This document shows positions 15,978 through 63,855 of a stretch of 64,000 nt of DNA, in pieces. Within the stretch, counting starts at the first letter, position 1; the number at the start of each line of letters is the position of its first letter. Location of the stretch: sequence record NC_054915.1, one strand, 5' to 3'. A program made the translations under genes and the position numbers. The notes below the pieces were generated by a model, which was given only the letters and a program-made list of their open reading frames with translations, was not told the DNA's origin and searched no databases. Source of the DNA: Escherichia phage vB_EcoM_G8.

Positions 15978-16766
<789 letters not shown>

Positions 16767-16867
16767 TCATTTATTGCAGCAAAAATGAATTATACAATTC
16801 TTCATCATATGTATTTGATAGTAATACTAACACGTTTTGCGATAAATATTAATTTAAAGGAGGACAT

Positions 16868-17068
16868 ATGGTACAAAAATTAATGGCACTTGTTAATGCC
16901 ATAAAAGGTAATAAAAAGCGTATAGCTTTTACTATTTCTGCTATGATAGGAATTTTACTTTGGAATTTTGTTTTATCGCCAGTTGCTATTGCTCATGGCG
17001 TTAGTATTCCAGTAGTTACTCTTGATACATTCGTAGATTTAGCATTTGCTTTAGTTGGGTTAATTTAA
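16868..17068 (+). CDS. small hydrophobic membrane protein on the opposite strand
   Basis: 66-aa ORF with strong RBS aaaggagg 5 nt before ATG; no competing minus-strand ORF in 16758-17064; two predicted TM segments. Confidence 0.5.
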   Translation: MVQKLMALVNAIKGNKKRIAFTISAMIGILLWNFVLSPVAIAHGVSIPVVTLDTFVDLAFALVGLI

Positions 17069-18093
17069 ATCTTAGCATATTTAGATAACCGCATTTTAGC
17101 CATCAACCCCTGGGAAATATTATTTTTCATATATTCCATAATTTGTTCAGGGGTTGCACCTTCCTTTCTAATCATATCATTAACATCTTTTGATTTCCAG
17201 GGGGATTTATCCCAAAACATAACCCTTTCTCCTGCATCAACTAATTTAGTCATTCGCTTAATAGTATCAGGATGACGAGGTTCATTATCTAAAACCCACA
17301 CTCGTCTATCTTTAAATGGAACAACTTCTAGGTCTAATTGACCACCTGTAATAGCTATACCATTTTCAATAAAAAGTGAATCTATAGGTCCTTCTAGAAC
17401 ATATACATCACCATCTTTAACTCGTTCGACTCCATAGATTTTTGTTGCCTCAGGATAAGCTTTGATGGTGATATATTTTTGAGGAGCATCTTTCTTTAAT
17501 GCACGTCCTTGAAAAGACTCAGCTTTTCCATTAGCATTATAAATTGGAATAACAAGACGAGGCTCAGAAATTTCCTTTTTGTATGTTCCCGGTGCTATGC
17601 TATTAACTAATTTAGGCCATTCGGTTGTAAACCAAAGATATTTCCATTTATCCTTTGGAATACAACGAGCTTTTACATATTTTATAATTGGATGATCTTC
17701 CGCCAGTTTATCTAATCTAACACATGACGGAAGAGATTTAATTATTTTCTTCTCGGGTTGTTTAGGAAGTTCTTTAGGTTTTTCTACTGGACGACTTTTA
17801 CCTTTTTCTTTTCTTATTTCAAAGATATACTCACGATATAAATCAGGTTCAAACTCCTTTAAATATATTCCGATTGGTGCATGATAGTTACAGTTATAAC
17901 AATGAATATTTCCTTCATTATTATCACCATAATACCATCCACGGGCTTTATTTTGGTCGGTTTTTGAATCTCCACACACTGGGCATCTAAACCGCAATTT
18001 AAAGGTTGAACTATTATTTACTTGTGTGAATTTAGGTAAATGAGCTAATGCACGGTATGCAAACTCATTATCAATCCAAGGTATTGATGACAT
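17065..18093 (-). CDS. 61: DNA primase gp61
   Basis: 342-aa ORF; zinc-ribbon CPVCGDS...CYNC plus Toprim-like region; T4 gp61 length. Confidence 0.95.
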   Translation of the reverse strand: MSSIPWIDNEFAYRALAHLPKFTQVNNSSTFKLRFRCPVCGDSKTDQNKARGWYYGDNNEGNIHCYNCNYHAPIGIYLKEFEPDLYREYIFEIRKEKGKSRPVEKPKELPKQPEKKIIKSLPSCVRLDKLAEDHPIIKYVKARCIPKDKWKYLWFTTEWPKLVNSIAPGTYKKEISEPRLVIPIYNANGKAESFQGRALKKDAPQKYITIKAYPEATKIYGVERVKDGDVYVLEGPIDSLFIENGIAITGGQLDLEVVPFKDRRVWVLDNEPRHPDTIKRMTKLVDAGERVMFWDKSPWKSKDVNDMIRKEGATPEQIMEYMKNNISQGLMAKMRLSKYAKI

Positions 18094-18095
18094 TT

Positions 18096-18260
18096 TTACT
18101 CTTCTTTTTCTTTAGATTCCTCTTTTTTCTTTTTAGGAATCTGCTCAGGACCTTTATTTACTACAGCGCCTGATGTTGTTCCAGTAGAGATATTTTCAGG
18201 ACTACCGCCTGAATCTCCAGCGACCATATCTTCTTTGATAAATTCTTTATATGTTTTCAT
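18096..18260 (-). CDS. 61.1-like small acidic/lysine-rich protein (54 aa), not in track
   Basis: hand translation MKTYKEFIKEDMVAGDSGGSPEN...; coordinates approximate. Confidence 0.4.
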   Translation of the reverse strand: MKTYKEFIKEDMVAGDSGGSPENISTGTTSGAVVNKGPEQIPKKKKEESKEKEE

Positions 18261-18261
18261 A

Positions 18262-18888
18262 TTAACCTCTATTCATAAAAGCATTAAAAATTTGGTCATC
18301 AATAGAAACATTTACTTTAGACTGTTTTTCGGATGGTAATTCATATCCACATATTACAATTTTGTGATCAATATCAAAATACACAGAAGCAATATGATTA
18401 ATGCTGTTTTCAGTAAAGTCTAAATCAACATCAATATCTTTTTGACCAAAGCCCAAAGGATAAATAATGCGAGTAATTCGATTATCTTTAACAAAGATTC
18501 CACCGACATACTCTGTACTGCGTTTAAAGTCTACACGCCGACGAAATGAAAAATATTCAGGCTCTTTATGAGCTCGGCTCATAGGGCACAACGAATAACT
18601 AGAATAAGAGATGTCAAATCCTACGCCTTCAATATGAACTAAATTGTCATGATTAAACCAATTATAATCATATGCCAAGTCCATTAGATTGTCATATGTG
18701 AAAGGCACCGGATTAACATCATTGGTCACAAGCATATAATTAGCAACTGCTATAATTTCATTATTTTTAACGAATACAAACCGTGATTGATGCGAATGGC
18801 CTGGACCTGCGTTTTCACGATTAATGATATAACACTGGGCACCTTTATATTTGTACGTGTCTTTACACTTGTGCATTTGATAAAACAT
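18262..18888 (-). CDS. gp61.2-like protein (reported anti-DarT factor AdfA homolog in T-even phages)
   Basis: 208-aa ORF in T4 61.2 position; function assignment from literature recall only. Confidence 0.6.
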   Translation of the reverse strand: MFYQMHKCKDTYKYKGAQCYIINRENAGPGHSHQSRFVFVKNNEIIAVANYMLVTNDVNPVPFTYDNLMDLAYDYNWFNHDNLVHIEGVGFDISYSSYSLCPMSRAHKEPEYFSFRRRVDFKRSTEYVGGIFVKDNRITRIIYPLGFGQKDIDVDLDFTENSINHIASVYFDIDHKIVICGYELPSEKQSKVNVSIDDQIFNAFMNRG

Positions 18889-19181
18889 TATTCACCTACC
18901 ACTTCAGCAATGATATTTTTGTTATTAAAGTTTTTATCGCAATACAGAACATAATTATACTGCATTACACCACCAGACTTAAGCTGTTTTTGCACTTCAG
19001 CTTTCATTTCAGGACGATCGCGCTCAACGATATTCATAATATCTGCTTCAATTTGGGTTTCAACCTCAGTCTGATCAGCAGTCATAGACCATTCGCACAA
19101 ATCTTTATCATAACCTGCCATAGCAGGCTGAGCAGCACAAGAAGCTAAAGCAAAAATTGTAGCAAAGATAAATTTTTTCAT
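18888..19181 (-). CDS. sp: Spackle periplasmic protein (superinfection exclusion, gp5 lysozyme inhibitor)
   Basis: 97-aa ORF with signal peptide, T4 Sp length and position. Confidence 0.8.
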   Translation of the reverse strand: MKKFIFATIFALASCAAQPAMAGYDKDLCEWSMTADQTEVETQIEADIMNIVERDRPEMKAEVQKQLKSGGVMQYNYVLYCDKNFNNKNIIAEVVGE

Positions 19182-19208
19182 GATAATCTCCTCAGTAGTT
19201 TATGTTTA

Positions 19209-19239
19209 TATAGTATCTCAATTTCCAACAAAAGTAAAC
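19209..19239 (-). promoter_or_regulatory. T4-type early promoter for sp
   Basis: plus strand atagta-18nt-gtaaac; GGAG RBS downstream. Confidence 0.6.
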
Positions 19240-19241
19240 AG

Positions 19242-19541
19242 TTATTTTAAAACTTCTGCATAATCACATGTTACAAACTGTTTCTCTAGCTTGACGATTT
19301 TACGAAAGTATCTTTTGCATTGACGAATCTGCCGCTTCGTAGGACGTACAGCAAACTTAATAAATTCCACTCGACCAAATGGAGGACTTTCTTCTGCTGG
19401 AATATCTAACACCAATTCCCACGTATCTGCAACAAGTGCTTTGAATTGCGTATTTTTCCTGACGTTATACGGAGTAGGTTTAAATAAAACAATATGCATA
19501 TTATCCTCGGCAATCCACTTCACATACTTTCTTGTCATCAA
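19242..19541 (-). CDS. gp61.4-like protein
   Basis: 99-aa ORF. Confidence 0.5.
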   Translation of the reverse strand: MMTRKYVKWIAEDNMHIVLFKPTPYNVRKNTQFKALVADTWELVLDIPAEESPPFGRVEFIKFAVRPTKRQIRQCKRYFRKIVKLEKQFVTCDYAEVLK

Positions 19542-19683
19542 TGAAAGCTTTAACTAATGCTTTATTAACTTCAGCATACTGAGTAGTAGCCCATTGAACG
19601 TCATCTTTCATCATTGTGGTTTCTTTAGTAAACATGCTTTCATTCTTAAACCACCCCATAAAAACTACCTTTACCAATTCCAT
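19501..19683 (-). CDS. dmd: Dmd (antitoxin against RnlA/LsoA)
   Basis: 60-aa ORF MELVKVVFMGWFKNESMF..., T4 Dmd length and position next to gene 41. Confidence 0.75.
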   Translation of the reverse strand: MELVKVVFMGWFKNESMFTKETTMMKDDVQWATTQYAEVNKALVKAFIDDKKVCEVDCRG

Positions 19684-19712
19684 AACAATCTCCTCATTTA
19701 ACCAACAAGACT

Positions 19713-19742
19713 ACTATACCATAGTCTCGTTAGCTTGTAAAC
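19713..19742 (-). promoter_or_regulatory. T4-type early promoter for dmd (-10 TATAGT)
   Basis: plus strand actata-18nt-gtaaac overlapping gene 41 stop. Confidence 0.65.
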
Positions 19743-21169
19743 TAAAATTTTAATTCATTCGCCAAAGCATCTAACTGAGCTCGAGTGGATTCATTTCTTT
19801 GATAGCGATTCTGTTCAGCCTGAATCTGCTGTGAACCTGCTACTTCACTCACTTCAGTTGGAGTAGAATCTTGTTCAATTTCTACCCATTTCTGATTTCC
19901 CTTTTGAACACCCATCAAAAACTTATTCCACTTATTCTTATCACCATATCGTGATTTGATTTGCTTAATGAGTTGTTGTTCAGCAGCTGCTAGCTCCTCG
20001 GTTTCAATGACCGCAAGCATAAAATCAGCTGTCGCTGGAAGACCAGCAGATTCTGCGATATCACTCATGTTAACATCAGAAGAATCCCAAGCTTGTTTGC
20101 CGACCTGCGCTGCAGTCCAAAGAACAGTTTCGGTTTCAACAGCCAAAGCACGCAATTCCTCTGCAATAGCTTTAACAGTTGTGTAACTATTTTCTGAATA
20201 AACTCTAATGCGGCAAGATTTACAAATACCTAGATAGTCGACAATAATGATTGTTGGAACAAAATTCTTTTTGAGCTTTAATTCATTTAAAAGTGATCGA
20301 AATGTATTAGCGTCTGCTCCACCAGTAGGATATTGCTTAACGATTAAACGACCAAGGGTAGATTTCTCACGCCATTTTTCCATTTTTCCTTTATACTCGG
20401 CGTAAGAAATATGTCCATCATCAATATCGTCAAGAGAAACATCGAGCATATTAGCATCAATACGTTTAGCGCAGACTTCTTCTGCCATTTCCATGGAGAT
20501 ATAAAGAACGTTATGACCAAGCTGCAAATAATCTGCTGCTAATGAACACAATCCTAATGATTTACCAACGTTAACGCCAGCCATTAAAACGTTCAATGTT
20601 CCAGTTTCAGCTCCGCCTTTCGTAATTTTGTTTAGAATTCTGAGTTTAAATGGAACTTTACGAGCTTTATTCATATAAGATAGCCAACGTGCTTCATAGT
20701 CATCCATCCAATCATGACCAACGTAACTATCAAATGAAATAGATAATGCTTGCCGCATGATGTCAGGAATAGCACCAACATCCGGCATTTTCTTATTTCG
20801 TTTTTCCGGAGGAAGCTCAGCATTAGTTTGAATTTCGATTATTTTAGACGTAGCATTAAACATCGCCCTTTGCTGAACATATTTTTCTGTTTCTTTTATT
20901 AACCAACTGTGGTCTTCTGGAGAATCAGCCAGTTTTGAAATAAGTGTTTTTACACCAGAATATTCTGTTTCAGTAAATGAACTATTTTCTAATGCAACAT
21001 TTAACGCATTAATAGATGGAACGCTATGGTACTCATTAACATGAGATTTAATTAATTTGAATGTATTTTTAGCTGGACCACTTTCAAAATATTCTGAATC
21101 CATATATGGCCAAACTTTTGAAAAATAAGCTTGATCAAATATGAGATGAGAAAGAATAATTTCTACCAC
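19742..21169 (-). CDS. 41: replicative DNA helicase gp41 (DnaB-like)
   Basis: 475-aa ORF; Walker A GVNVGKS; T4 gp41 length. Confidence 0.95.
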   Translation of the reverse strand: MVEIILSHLIFDQAYFSKVWPYMDSEYFESGPAKNTFKLIKSHVNEYHSVPSINALNVALENSSFTETEYSGVKTLISKLADSPEDHSWLIKETEKYVQQRAMFNATSKIIEIQTNAELPPEKRNKKMPDVGAIPDIMRQALSISFDSYVGHDWMDDYEARWLSYMNKARKVPFKLRILNKITKGGAETGTLNVLMAGVNVGKSLGLCSLAADYLQLGHNVLYISMEMAEEVCAKRIDANMLDVSLDDIDDGHISYAEYKGKMEKWREKSTLGRLIVKQYPTGGADANTFRSLLNELKLKKNFVPTIIIVDYLGICKSCRIRVYSENSYTTVKAIAEELRALAVETETVLWTAAQVGKQAWDSSDVNMSDIAESAGLPATADFMLAVIETEELAAAEQQLIKQIKSRYGDKNKWNKFLMGVQKGNQKWVEIEQDSTPTEVSEVAGSQQIQAEQNRYQRNESTRAQLDALANELKF

Positions 21170-21178
21170 ACTTACTCC

Positions 21179-21541
21179 TTAAAAGAATTTAAATTTTTTC
21201 TTTGACCTTTTATTAAATGCATCTTGTAGTTGCATTGTAATACATTTTTCTACATGAGGAGCTAACTCAGCTTTTCTTTCTTGGTCAAGAACAGCAAAGT
21301 CCATTACAACCTTTCCATCAACCCAATCCAGTTTAGTTACATACACTATATGTGTAGAACCATCTTCTAGTTTAATGACAATCTCCTGGATAACATTTTC
21401 CATAGCGGATTTAATTATCTTAAGAGACTCATTAAAAAGACGTTCTTTTCTTTCTTCTTCCCCCTCCGAAGAGGGGGATTCATCGATAATTTCTAGATCT
21501 AAGTCTAAATCATCTTTATTCATTAAATTCTTCCATATCAC
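21179..21541 (-). CDS. 40: gp40-like protein (head vertex assembly)
   Basis: 120-aa ORF between 41 and uvsX as in T4. Confidence 0.6.
   Translation of the reverse strand: MIWKNLMNKDDLDLDLEIIDESPSSEGEEERKERLFNESLKIIKSAMENVIQEIVIKLEDGSTHIVYVTKLDWVDGKVVMDFAVLDQERKAELAPHVEKCITMQLQDAFNKRSKKKFKFF
21460..21477 (-). other. perfect 7-bp GC-rich C(UUCG)G hairpin embedded in gene 40 coding sequence
   Basis: plus strand ccccctc-cgaa-gaggggg encoding ESPSSEGEE. Confidence 0.6.
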
Positions 21542-62503: not shown

Positions 62504-63082
62504 TTAGGAATTACGGGCTGCATTAGCAACGGCGTAAGCGTACTGGACATTAGCGTCTTTAAACGTACCTTTAGAGGTATCTATTTCTGCCTTAAAGCCG
62601 CCTTTAGCCATAACATCGGCAAATTCTTTACGGAAAGCCATTGCATCAAGACCTTTCCATGATGATTTATGCTTGGCAAATTCAAGACCAGCGTAGTTGA
62701 CAGCCTTAGCTAATTTATTATCAATAACCCATTTACCGGCTTTAGGCACAAACTTCGGGCCTTTTTGTTTAGAGAACAGTTTTAAATTCCAGCGACGAAG
62801 GTCACTGTCGGCTTTAACAAAAGCTGCGTCTAAGTTACTAGCAACAACATCTTCAATATGGGCAAATTTAAGTCCGTCAACTTCAATATTTAGATCGTTA
62901 CGCCAGCGAAGTCCTTCCCAAGCGAAGGCTTTAAAGTCGGAAGCCTTTGTAGCTAAGTACCGTTCAATAGGAGCTGTTTTAGGGTCAAAGCCGTTTCCCG
63001 ATCGGTAGGTCCACTCATCTTTATTAATGCCTTTGGCCTTTACTATAGAAGCTTCGGCAATAAATTCTTGATAGGTTTTCAT
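62504..63082 (-). CDS. internal protein, IPIII-like, with N-terminal capsid targeting sequence
   Basis: 192-aa ORF starting MKTYQEFIAEA (CTS shared by T4 internal proteins). Confidence 0.75.
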   Translation of the reverse strand: MKTYQEFIAEASIVKAKGINKDEWTYRSGNGFDPKTAPIERYLATKASDFKAFAWEGLRWRNDLNIEVDGLKFAHIEDVVASNLDAAFVKADSDLRRWNLKLFSKQKGPKFVPKAGKWVIDNKLAKAVNYAGLEFAKHKSSWKGLDAMAFRKEFADVMAKGGFKAEIDTSKGTFKDANVQYAYAVANAARNS

Positions 63083-63143
63083 GTGTTTCCTTGTTTGTTT
63101 TGATAGAGTAATTATACCATATTAATACTTAAGCGTAAACCGT

Positions 63144-63404
63144 TTAAGCTTTACTGCCAGAAATAATTCCGAAGTTGTTAAAATCATATCCAATATCGTC
63201 AACATCTACTTTAGGACTTGCTACAACATAAGCAATTTCACTACGTTTTGCACAGGTGTTGATTTCTTTACCATCGCCACCTAAGAAAGAATACCCATTA
63301 CGTTTTAATGAGCCAAAGTCTTCCGCATCACCAATGAAAGCTTTAACTTTAAATTTAGAACCTCTGGCATCTGCTTCAACGATAAATTCTTGATACATTT
63401 TCAT
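63144..63404 (-). CDS. internal protein with capsid targeting sequence
   Basis: 86-aa ORF starting MKMYQEFIVEA. Confidence 0.7.
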   Translation of the reverse strand: MKMYQEFIVEADARGSKFKVKAFIGDAEDFGSLKRNGYSFLGGDGKEINTCAKRSEIAYVVASPKVDVDDIGYDFNNFGIISGSKA

Positions 63405-63410
63405 TTTTCC

Positions 63411-63524
63411 TTAGTAAATTGATTTACCAAAGTATTTGTACCAAGTCGGACGTTGATCAATTTTTTCATCTAAGCGTGCTTGATTTATCGCAATGGACGC
63501 TTCGGACGGGTCATAATTTCCTCC
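63411..63524 (-). pseudogene. denV: 3' remnant of denV (endonuclease V / pyrimidine dimer glycosylase), last about 37 codons only
   Basis: frame reads ...[37 protein letters not shown] matching remembered T4 EndoV C-terminus ...[38 protein letters not shown]; upstream part replaced by promoter sequence. Confidence 0.6.
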
Positions 63525-63541
63525 AAGTAGTTGATGAATGT

Positions 63542-63571
63542 ATAGTATCAAAACCCTTGGAGGAAGTAAAC
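63542..63571 (-). promoter_or_regulatory. T4-type early promoter immediately upstream of denV remnant
   Basis: plus strand atagta-18nt-gtaaac. Confidence 0.6.
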
Positions 63572-63573
63572 AA

Positions 63574-63855
63574 CTATTTTTCTGAAGCGCCTGAAATATA
63601 TTTTTCAAGACGTTGTTTCATCAGTGAGCCGTTCTTAGCGATTTCTTCCGGTTTATCGCACATACGCAACAAGGCTTCAAGCTTAACGATATCACTGGTG
63701 CGCTCAAATTTGCGAGTATCTATCTTACTAGCAAGTTCAGAAATACGTGCTAATAGACTTTCAGCTTCAACCAAAGCTGCACCTAGCTTAGTTGCAAATG
63801 TGTCAGTAGCTTCGTTAAGAATAGATTCTGATAAAAATTCACTATATGTTTTCAT
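63574..63855 (-). CDS. internal protein with capsid targeting sequence
   Basis: 93-aa ORF from [11 protein letters not shown]; ATGA overlap with stop of gene e. Confidence 0.65.

Follow-up and report, generated by a model that had tools for sequence, protein, structure and literature searches.

Between the primase gene 61 and the helicase gene 41 of Escherichia phage vB_EcoM_G8 (sequence record NC_054915.1; the 64,000-nucleotide stretch analysed here is called the window) five small open reading frames (ORFs) are encoded on the minus strand, and the question raised by this locus is whether they form an accessory island of anti-defence genes, as was proposed in an initial annotation made from the sequence alone, and whether its uncharacterised members are natural candidates for further counter-defence functions. 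The five ORFs correspond one-to-one to T4 61.1, 61.2, sp, 61.4 and dmd, which agrees with that annotation and was established by alignment to T4 and by Pfam searches, in which the matches to AdfA, T4_Spackle, DUF7279 and Dmd were all full-length (Table 1); PHROGs assignments of the island proteins, likewise full-length, agreed with the Pfam ones. Positions 17000-19800 aligned to positions 17870-20670 of T4 (AF158101) with 98% nucleotide identity, colinearly and with indels absent, and the nearest records to this interval were those of phages G50 and PST. The cluster itself occupies 18096-19683, exactly from the 61.1 stop to the dmd start, and relative to T4 it is without gene gain or loss and differs by a few amino acid (aa) substitutions only (AdfA L2F, L62P, I162S and P190S; Dmd I22T; Sp K53E; TifA, the product of 61.4, I23V and I83V). 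Judged by its sequence, which is identical to T4 at about 98%, the region is the 41-61 intergenic cluster of a Tequatrovirus; no contradiction to the gene identities was found. A 99-aa, TTG-started version of 61.4 in the program-made ORF list was rejected as an over-extension; the 85-aa ORF of T4 starts with the ATG at 19499, one base past the dmd stop codon.

Functions and allele states of the island proteins were compared with published work on T4 and RB69. Dmd, given as an inhibitor of RnlA and LsoA in work cited in PMC9391042, is nearly identical to its T4 counterpart, and its assignment as an antitoxin against RnlA/LsoA stands. The 61.4-like ORF had been listed as uncharacterised, which is not the case: 61.4 was renamed tifA in 2022, after T4 had escaped toxIN via amplification of dmd-tifA (PMC9391042), and TifA inhibits ToxN: by binding both the toxin and RNA it traps ToxN as an inactive ribonucleoprotein (PMC9391042, PMC10853763). 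In the TifA of the window the RNA-binding residues K55, R56 and R59 are present and the C-terminal extension is as in T4. Residue 41 is Phe, the weak T4-type allele, and not the potent Ser or His; the substitutions F41S and F41H strengthen ToxN inhibition, and Phe41 bears on the potency of TifA, not on its family membership.

The 61.2-like ORF had been linked from recall to an anti-DarT factor of T-even phages, and its product proved to be similar over its full length to AdfA, including His165, which aligns with RB69 R164, the residue deciding DarT1 neutralisation. RB69 escape mutants on DarTG1 carry AdfA R164H, and T4 AdfA, which has His at that position, rescues RB69 when overexpressed and binds DarT1 weakly (PMC11825919). 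T4 without adfA stays DarTG1-resistant because a NADAR-type enzyme encoded elsewhere, AdfN (gp30.3), does the work (PMC11825919). The AdfA of the window thereby reads as a T4-type allele and is a predicted DarT1 binder. Spackle is an exported protein whose mature form begins at Gly23, and its target for inhibition is the tail lysozyme gp5 of superinfecting phages (PMC7677548). The window protein has the signal peptide, this Gly23 and the pair of Cys29 and Cys81. As a periplasmic inhibitor of gp5 lysozyme that acts in superinfection exclusion, spackle is not a counter-defence protein (PMC7677548).

Taken together, these results make it very probable that the cluster follows the known model of two early units that encode Dmd, TifA and AdfA as stoichiometric inhibitors of toxin-antitoxin (TA) toxins, along with a periplasmic lysozyme inhibitor. 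In this model both units fire immediately after infection and run toward the primase gene; the promoter upstream of dmd would drive dmd and tifA, and that upstream of sp would drive sp, adfA, 61.1 and then gene 61. Dmd would bind and block the RNases RnlA and LsoA, TifA would bind ToxN together with RNA to give the inactive ribonucleoprotein, AdfA would bind the DNA ADP-ribosyltransferase DarT1, and spackle would reach the periplasm and inhibit the tail lysozyme of superinfecting T-even phages. These activities are transferred from the T4 and RB69 experiments via protein identities of 94-99%. Because the allele states are of the T4 type, the phage is expected to behave like T4: it should be resistant to RnlAB and LsoAB, plasmid-borne toxIN should restrict it unless tifA is amplified (F41), and its AdfA should be a weak DarT1 binder that is not needed for DarTG1 resistance.

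A generic sigma-70 scan gave 23 sites in the window versus 18.8 in shuffled sequences; it was no better than shuffles and was therefore dropped in favour of the T4-specific early-promoter signature (GTTTAC-N16-18-TANNNT), which was scanned over the whole window against 100 shuffles. This signature matched 20 times, where 2.5 matches were expected (8-fold), none of the 100 shuffles reached 20, and 19 of the 20 matches lie on the minus strand, along which early transcription runs. Both internal early promoters of the initial annotation carry the signature and are real. However, only the one upstream of sp is strictly internal to the interval 18096-19683, the one upstream of dmd being found about 30-60 nt beyond 19683. 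In the generic scan the dmd promoter scored 10/12 with TG, while the sp promoter was missed because it matches the consensus at 8/12 positions only. It was also observed that a GTTTAC -35 element with an extended -10 element (TGGTAnnAT) predicts promoters here far more sharply than the sigma-70 consensus.

In T4 the early promoter upstream of dmd drives dmd-61.4 (Srikant 2022, PMC9391042), and in T4 omics data the RNAs of 61.1, 61.2, sp, 61.4 and dmd are all classed as early. The ribosome-binding site of dmd in the window is GAGGAG. No terminator-like sites were seen inside the island, the 16-22 kb interval held no TATAAATA late promoter and the 17-21.5 kb interval no MotA-box middle promoter, and an Rfam search of 16500-21500 at E<=1 returned no RNA family. 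The likely transcription units are dmd-tifA and sp-adfA-61.1-61.

The region was named "anti-TA island", and its remaining genes were proposed as candidates, by Srikant et al. 2022 (Srikant, Guegler & Laub, eLife; PMC9391042). The T4 island (Srikant, Guegler & Laub 2022; LeRoux et al. 2022) has the same genes, order, strand and promoters as the locus described here, so that the island as such is already known and its description adds nothing to the 2022-2025 publications. The gene order dmd-tifA-sp-adfA-61.1 recurs in the 41-61 region of RB69; unlike that of the window this region has 11 annotated ORFs, including imm, imm.1 and four ORFans, its TifA is shorter and more potent (H41), and its AdfA is inactive (R164). 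For a broader comparison 40 viral loci were fetched via a 61.1 motif, by which the presence of 61.1, though not its adjacency to gene 61, was ascertained. Among these loci AdfA was restricted to T4-like and RB69-like phages, the presence of Sp, TifA and Dmd varied, and in L042 nothing but a 61.1 homologue lies between 41 and 61; the number of ORFs in the gap is thus 5 here, 11 in RB69 and 1 in L042. Searches of a phage collection with tblastn gave 2,431 records for gp61, 1,439 for 61.1, 902 for Sp, 799 for Dmd, 675 for TifA and 485 for AdfA. Such variable gene content fits an accessory island, and for most members the region is one; with dmd, tifA and adfA within 1.4 kb and a content that varies by genus it also has the makeup of an anti-TA island.

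Several points limit this description. The label of an island of anti-defence genes applies to dmd, tifA and adfA, but spackle is no anti-defence gene. The T4-type AdfA is weak and dispensable, DarTG1 resistance resting on AdfN/gp30.3 encoded elsewhere, and 61.1 acts as a near-core and not as an accessory gene. The view that uncharacterised members of the island are counter-defence candidates was sound, and had been published in 2022; the sole gene to which it could still apply is 61.1, which is not accessory-like.

In a rather unlikely alternative, the genes are clustered without functional significance: the 41-61 gap would be a hyperplastic region that collects unrelated small early genes, and the "island" a label of convenience. 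The island does mix three anti-TA genes with the superinfection-exclusion gene sp, to which RB69 adds imm and imm.1, and with near-core 61.1, and the main anti-DarTG1 gene of T-even phages, adfN/30.3, sits elsewhere. However, three validated inhibitors of three TA toxin classes inside 1.4 kb are judged to exceed what a random draw of early genes should give, and tifA paralogues recur in the 41-61 gap of other genera. Separately, we observed that seven of the loci (L007, L009, L011, L013, L014, L016 and L017) have two separate TifA-like ORFs in the 41-61 gap, 35-47% identical to the TifA of the window, and therefore that tifA has in-island paralogues in other genera; gp41 of these seven loci is about 65% identical to that of the window, and L011, L013 and L014 share the 61.1 of Dhakavirus PSD2002.

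We then turned to 61.1, for which a literature search found no paper assigning a function, the gene appearing only in gene tables. It is the most widespread member of the island despite being the shortest query: its records span phages of Escherichia, Klebsiella, Aeromonas, Acinetobacter and Vibrio, whereas the other island genes are confined to 485-902 records. A 29-codon core (MVAGDSGG..NI..GTTSGAVVNKGPE) showed a median pN (nonsynonymous) of 0.157 versus a pS (synonymous) of 0.708 in 120 pairs and is thus under purifying selection; the tail of the protein is Lys-rich. Two architectures occur in the family, a long form (phrog_2086; about 155 aa), in which about 105 aa make up a helical N-terminal domain, and a short form of 51-56 aa, which is found in T4-type and some other genera. 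Pfam gave no match for 61.1 or the long form even at lax thresholds. With AlphaFold2 the N-terminal domain was modelled with moderate confidence and the 61.1-like tail was predicted to be disordered; no solved structure resembling the long-form model was found.

The N-terminal domain of the long form belongs to a very large phage family with 1,837 representative clusters. The neighbours of its distant relatives are early, replication and nucleotide-metabolism genes, and a DUF7207 gene often precedes the relative; no capsid genes were near them in the contexts examined. In non-T4 contigs (L048-L050, L052 and L053) the phrog_18642 relatives of this domain were repeatedly preceded by a DUF7207 (PF23837) gene, and the two may form a conserved two-gene module. 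RB69 carries a long-form 61.1 that is split in its reference record (NC_004928; L003 3318-3784) into ORF032c and a 92-aa "61.1" in different frames, while the close relatives L021 and L022 have an intact 155-aa ORF; the comparison suggests that the reference contains a frameshift or sequencing error, or that the gene is truly a pseudogene in RB69.

Part of 61.1 resembles the major capsid protein gp23. BLASTP aligned 61.1 residues 2-38 with gp23 residues 57-93 (41% identity over 37 residues, E=1e-8), and when the family profile was compared with all 177,635 PDB sequences, gp23 was the sole match (58-94, E=3.9e-5). The aligned gp23 segment includes the gp21 prohead protease site LTE65/A66 (the slash marking the cut) and the start of the gp23* N-arm. 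Its counterpart in 61.1 is I8-K9-E10/D11, with [LIVM]-x-E in register, and in every one of the 40 loci, as well as in the 32-member long-form alignment with its insertion variants, a hydrophobic-x-Glu motif stands directly before the MVAGD core. The gp23 and 61.1 versions of the segment are each separately conserved. Some databases label 61.1 homologues "major capsid domain-containing protein", and the similarity behind this label is real but local. An identification of 61.1 as a major capsid protein was rejected: only gp23 58-94 is matched, no HK97-like fold was recognised, Pfam gave no capsid domain at E<=10, and the segment is predicted to be disordered. Instead, 61.1 looks like an ancient paralogue of this gp23 segment without the HK97-fold body.

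The N-terminus of 61.1 was further compared with that of the T4 internal proteins. IPI, IPII and IPIII of T4 carry a capsid-targeting sequence (CTS), are cleaved by gp21 and enter the host together with the injected DNA, where IPI* blocks the GmrSD restriction enzyme. The CTS consists of the first ten residues of IPIII, with positions 4 and 7 as determinants of targeting and positions 8 and 10 of processing (PMC9026906). Residues 1-10 of 61.1 (MKTYKEFIKE) keep Y4, F7, I8 and E10 of the IPIII of the window (MKTYQEFIAE). When the 644 ATG-started window ORFs of at least 40 aa were scored against the CTS with BLOSUM, IPIII scored 51, 61.1 scored 42 and two ORFs of the internal-protein locus scored 41 each, the next best score being 20. 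Like the T4 internal proteins, 61.1 is thus of the CTS type at all four experimentally defined positions and is served by an early promoter; unlike them, its CTS likeness is not family-wide, and its mature part would be 44 aa long. Early expression is no objection to packaging, since IPIII also has an early-promoter signature directly upstream and the T4 internal proteins are classed as "early RNA, late protein".

These similarities raise the possibility, which we put forward tentatively and regard as doubtful, that the near-core protein gp61.1 is a free-standing paralogue of the maturation segment at the gp23 N-terminus, targeted to the prohead as a gp21 substrate and thus a capsid-related small protein. 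The T4-type 61.1 would have exchanged the 105-aa N-terminal domain for a functional CTS; the protein would enter the prohead and be cut after Glu10 to yield a 44-residue peptide, which would either remain in the head and, as internal proteins do, leave it with the injected DNA, or have a role in the assembly or maturation of the capsid. This account reads packaging and cleavage, and any phenotype, from sequence likeness. No paper proposing it for 61.1 was found, with incomplete access to the literature.

Other observations weigh against this reading. The CTS is not conserved across 61.1 homologues, namely in Dhakavirus PSD2002 and in the long forms. At least six ORFs of PSD2002 have a canonical CTS, yet its 61.1 starts with MKSFKEVMNE (score 23), in which targeting residue 7 is changed, while an unrelated ORF of the same phage starts with MKTFKEVIQE. 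The 61.1 N-terminus therefore does not track the CTS of the phage, which weakens the case for family-wide packaging by a CTS. In the long forms the 105-aa domain stands in place of the CTS-like decapeptide, and the N-terminus of T4 61.1 could be homologous to the long-form "..QKEIFKELPLFE/D" and not a grafted CTS. Further, the 61.1 protein was not detected in a T4 time-course proteome, which is unsurprising for a Lys-rich protein of 54 residues.

An unlikely alternative is that 61.1 is an accessory factor of the primase-helicase or serves mainly to set up the translation of gene 61. In each of the 40 loci, and again in a distant T4-like contig, gene 61 follows directly after it, an adjacency that, in contrast to the presence of 61.1, was not built into the sampling. 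In the window its stop codon lies 2 nt ahead of the gene 61 ATG and its last codons hold the gene 61 ribosome-binding site, and the distant relatives of the long-form N-terminal domain lie, as described above, among replication and nucleotide-metabolism genes and not among capsid genes. However, in most other genera 40-80 nt separate 61.1 from gene 61, so that the tight coupling is not conserved, and the sequence of 61.1 gives no hint of DNA or replisome binding. Protein-level purifying selection on the 29-codon core shows that 61.1 is not merely a leader ORF.

Even less probable is that 61.1 is a counter-defence gene, for example one whose product imitates the gp23 segment in the cytoplasm as a decoy and engages a host sensor or factor ahead of gp23 synthesis: it sits in the island, its RNA is early, and it is small, predicted to be disordered and similar to gp23 58-94, but its near-core distribution and fixed position by gene 61 set it apart from known counter-defence genes, which are patchy and fast-evolving. 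A known trigger of Lit is gp23 itself, EF-Tu being bound by a short peptide from the first quarter of the protein, and several other defence systems are triggered by capsid proteins. The Gol peptide would start at about gp23 residue 94, right after the 61.1-like segment. Since T4 is still excluded by Lit, an effective anti-Lit role of 61.1 is unlikely.

Table 1. Features of the 41-61 region and of the internal-protein locus in the window (promoter positions are given in the direction of transcription; fractions are residues identical to T4)
Feature	Position	Strand	Details
gene 61, DNA primase, downstream flank	17065-18093	minus	339/342 aa, T4 gp61
61.1, 54 aa	18096-18260	minus	52/54 aa
adfA (61.2), anti-DarT factor A	18262-18888	minus	204/208 aa; PF23813 E=2.8e-137
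sp (61.3), spackle	18888-19181	minus	96/97 aa; PF25676 T4_Spackle E=1.3e-44
early promoter upstream of sp	19239..19210	minus	GTTTACT -35, TACTAT -10; in the 60-nt gap 61.4/sp
tifA (61.4), 85 aa	19242-19499	minus	83/85 aa; PF23945/DUF7279 E=4.7e-20
dmd (61.5), 60 aa	19501-19683	minus	59/60 aa; PF17587 E=1.8e-45
early promoter upstream of dmd-tifA	19742..19713	minus	GTTTACA -35, TGgTATAGT extended -10; in the 58-nt gap 41/dmd
gene 41, replicative helicase, upstream flank	19742-21169	minus	473/475 aa, T4 gp41
IPIII	62504-63082	minus	starts MKTYQEFIAE
86-aa ORF, internal-protein locus	start 63404	minus	starts MKMYQEFIVE
93-aa ORF, internal-protein locus	start 63855	minus	CTS-type decapeptide

Two further loci of the window were recorded. 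At the internal-protein locus (62504-63855, minus strand) three ORFs start with CTS-type decapeptides, and early-promoter signatures were found at 63140..63111 and 63571..63542; the 86-aa and 93-aa ORFs seem to encode alternative internal proteins and not T4 IPII. Downstream of the island a conserved 66-aa ORF with hydrophobic segments lies on the plus strand (16868-17068), convergent with gene 61, the two overlapping by 4 nt at the gene 61 stop. The ORF belongs with phrog_2024 (E=8e-31), has homologues at the corresponding position in RB69 (ORF029w, 54% identity), G50 and Dhakavirus PSD2002, and is without annotation in the T4 record AF158101; a terminator-like hairpin (16902..16883, minus strand) lies inside it.

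For the biology of the phage, the locus provides a standard T4-type allele set, which predicts its behaviour on RnlAB/LsoAB, ToxIN and DarTG hosts. The new and modest lead is the nature of 61.1, and it argues against listing this gene as another candidate antitoxin. If the reading of 61.1 as a paralogue of a capsid segment and a protease substrate is true, the gene would have to be struck from lists of candidate antitoxins, and T4-like phages would possess an unrecognised small head component that is encoded in the replication region, or a regulator of head maturation.

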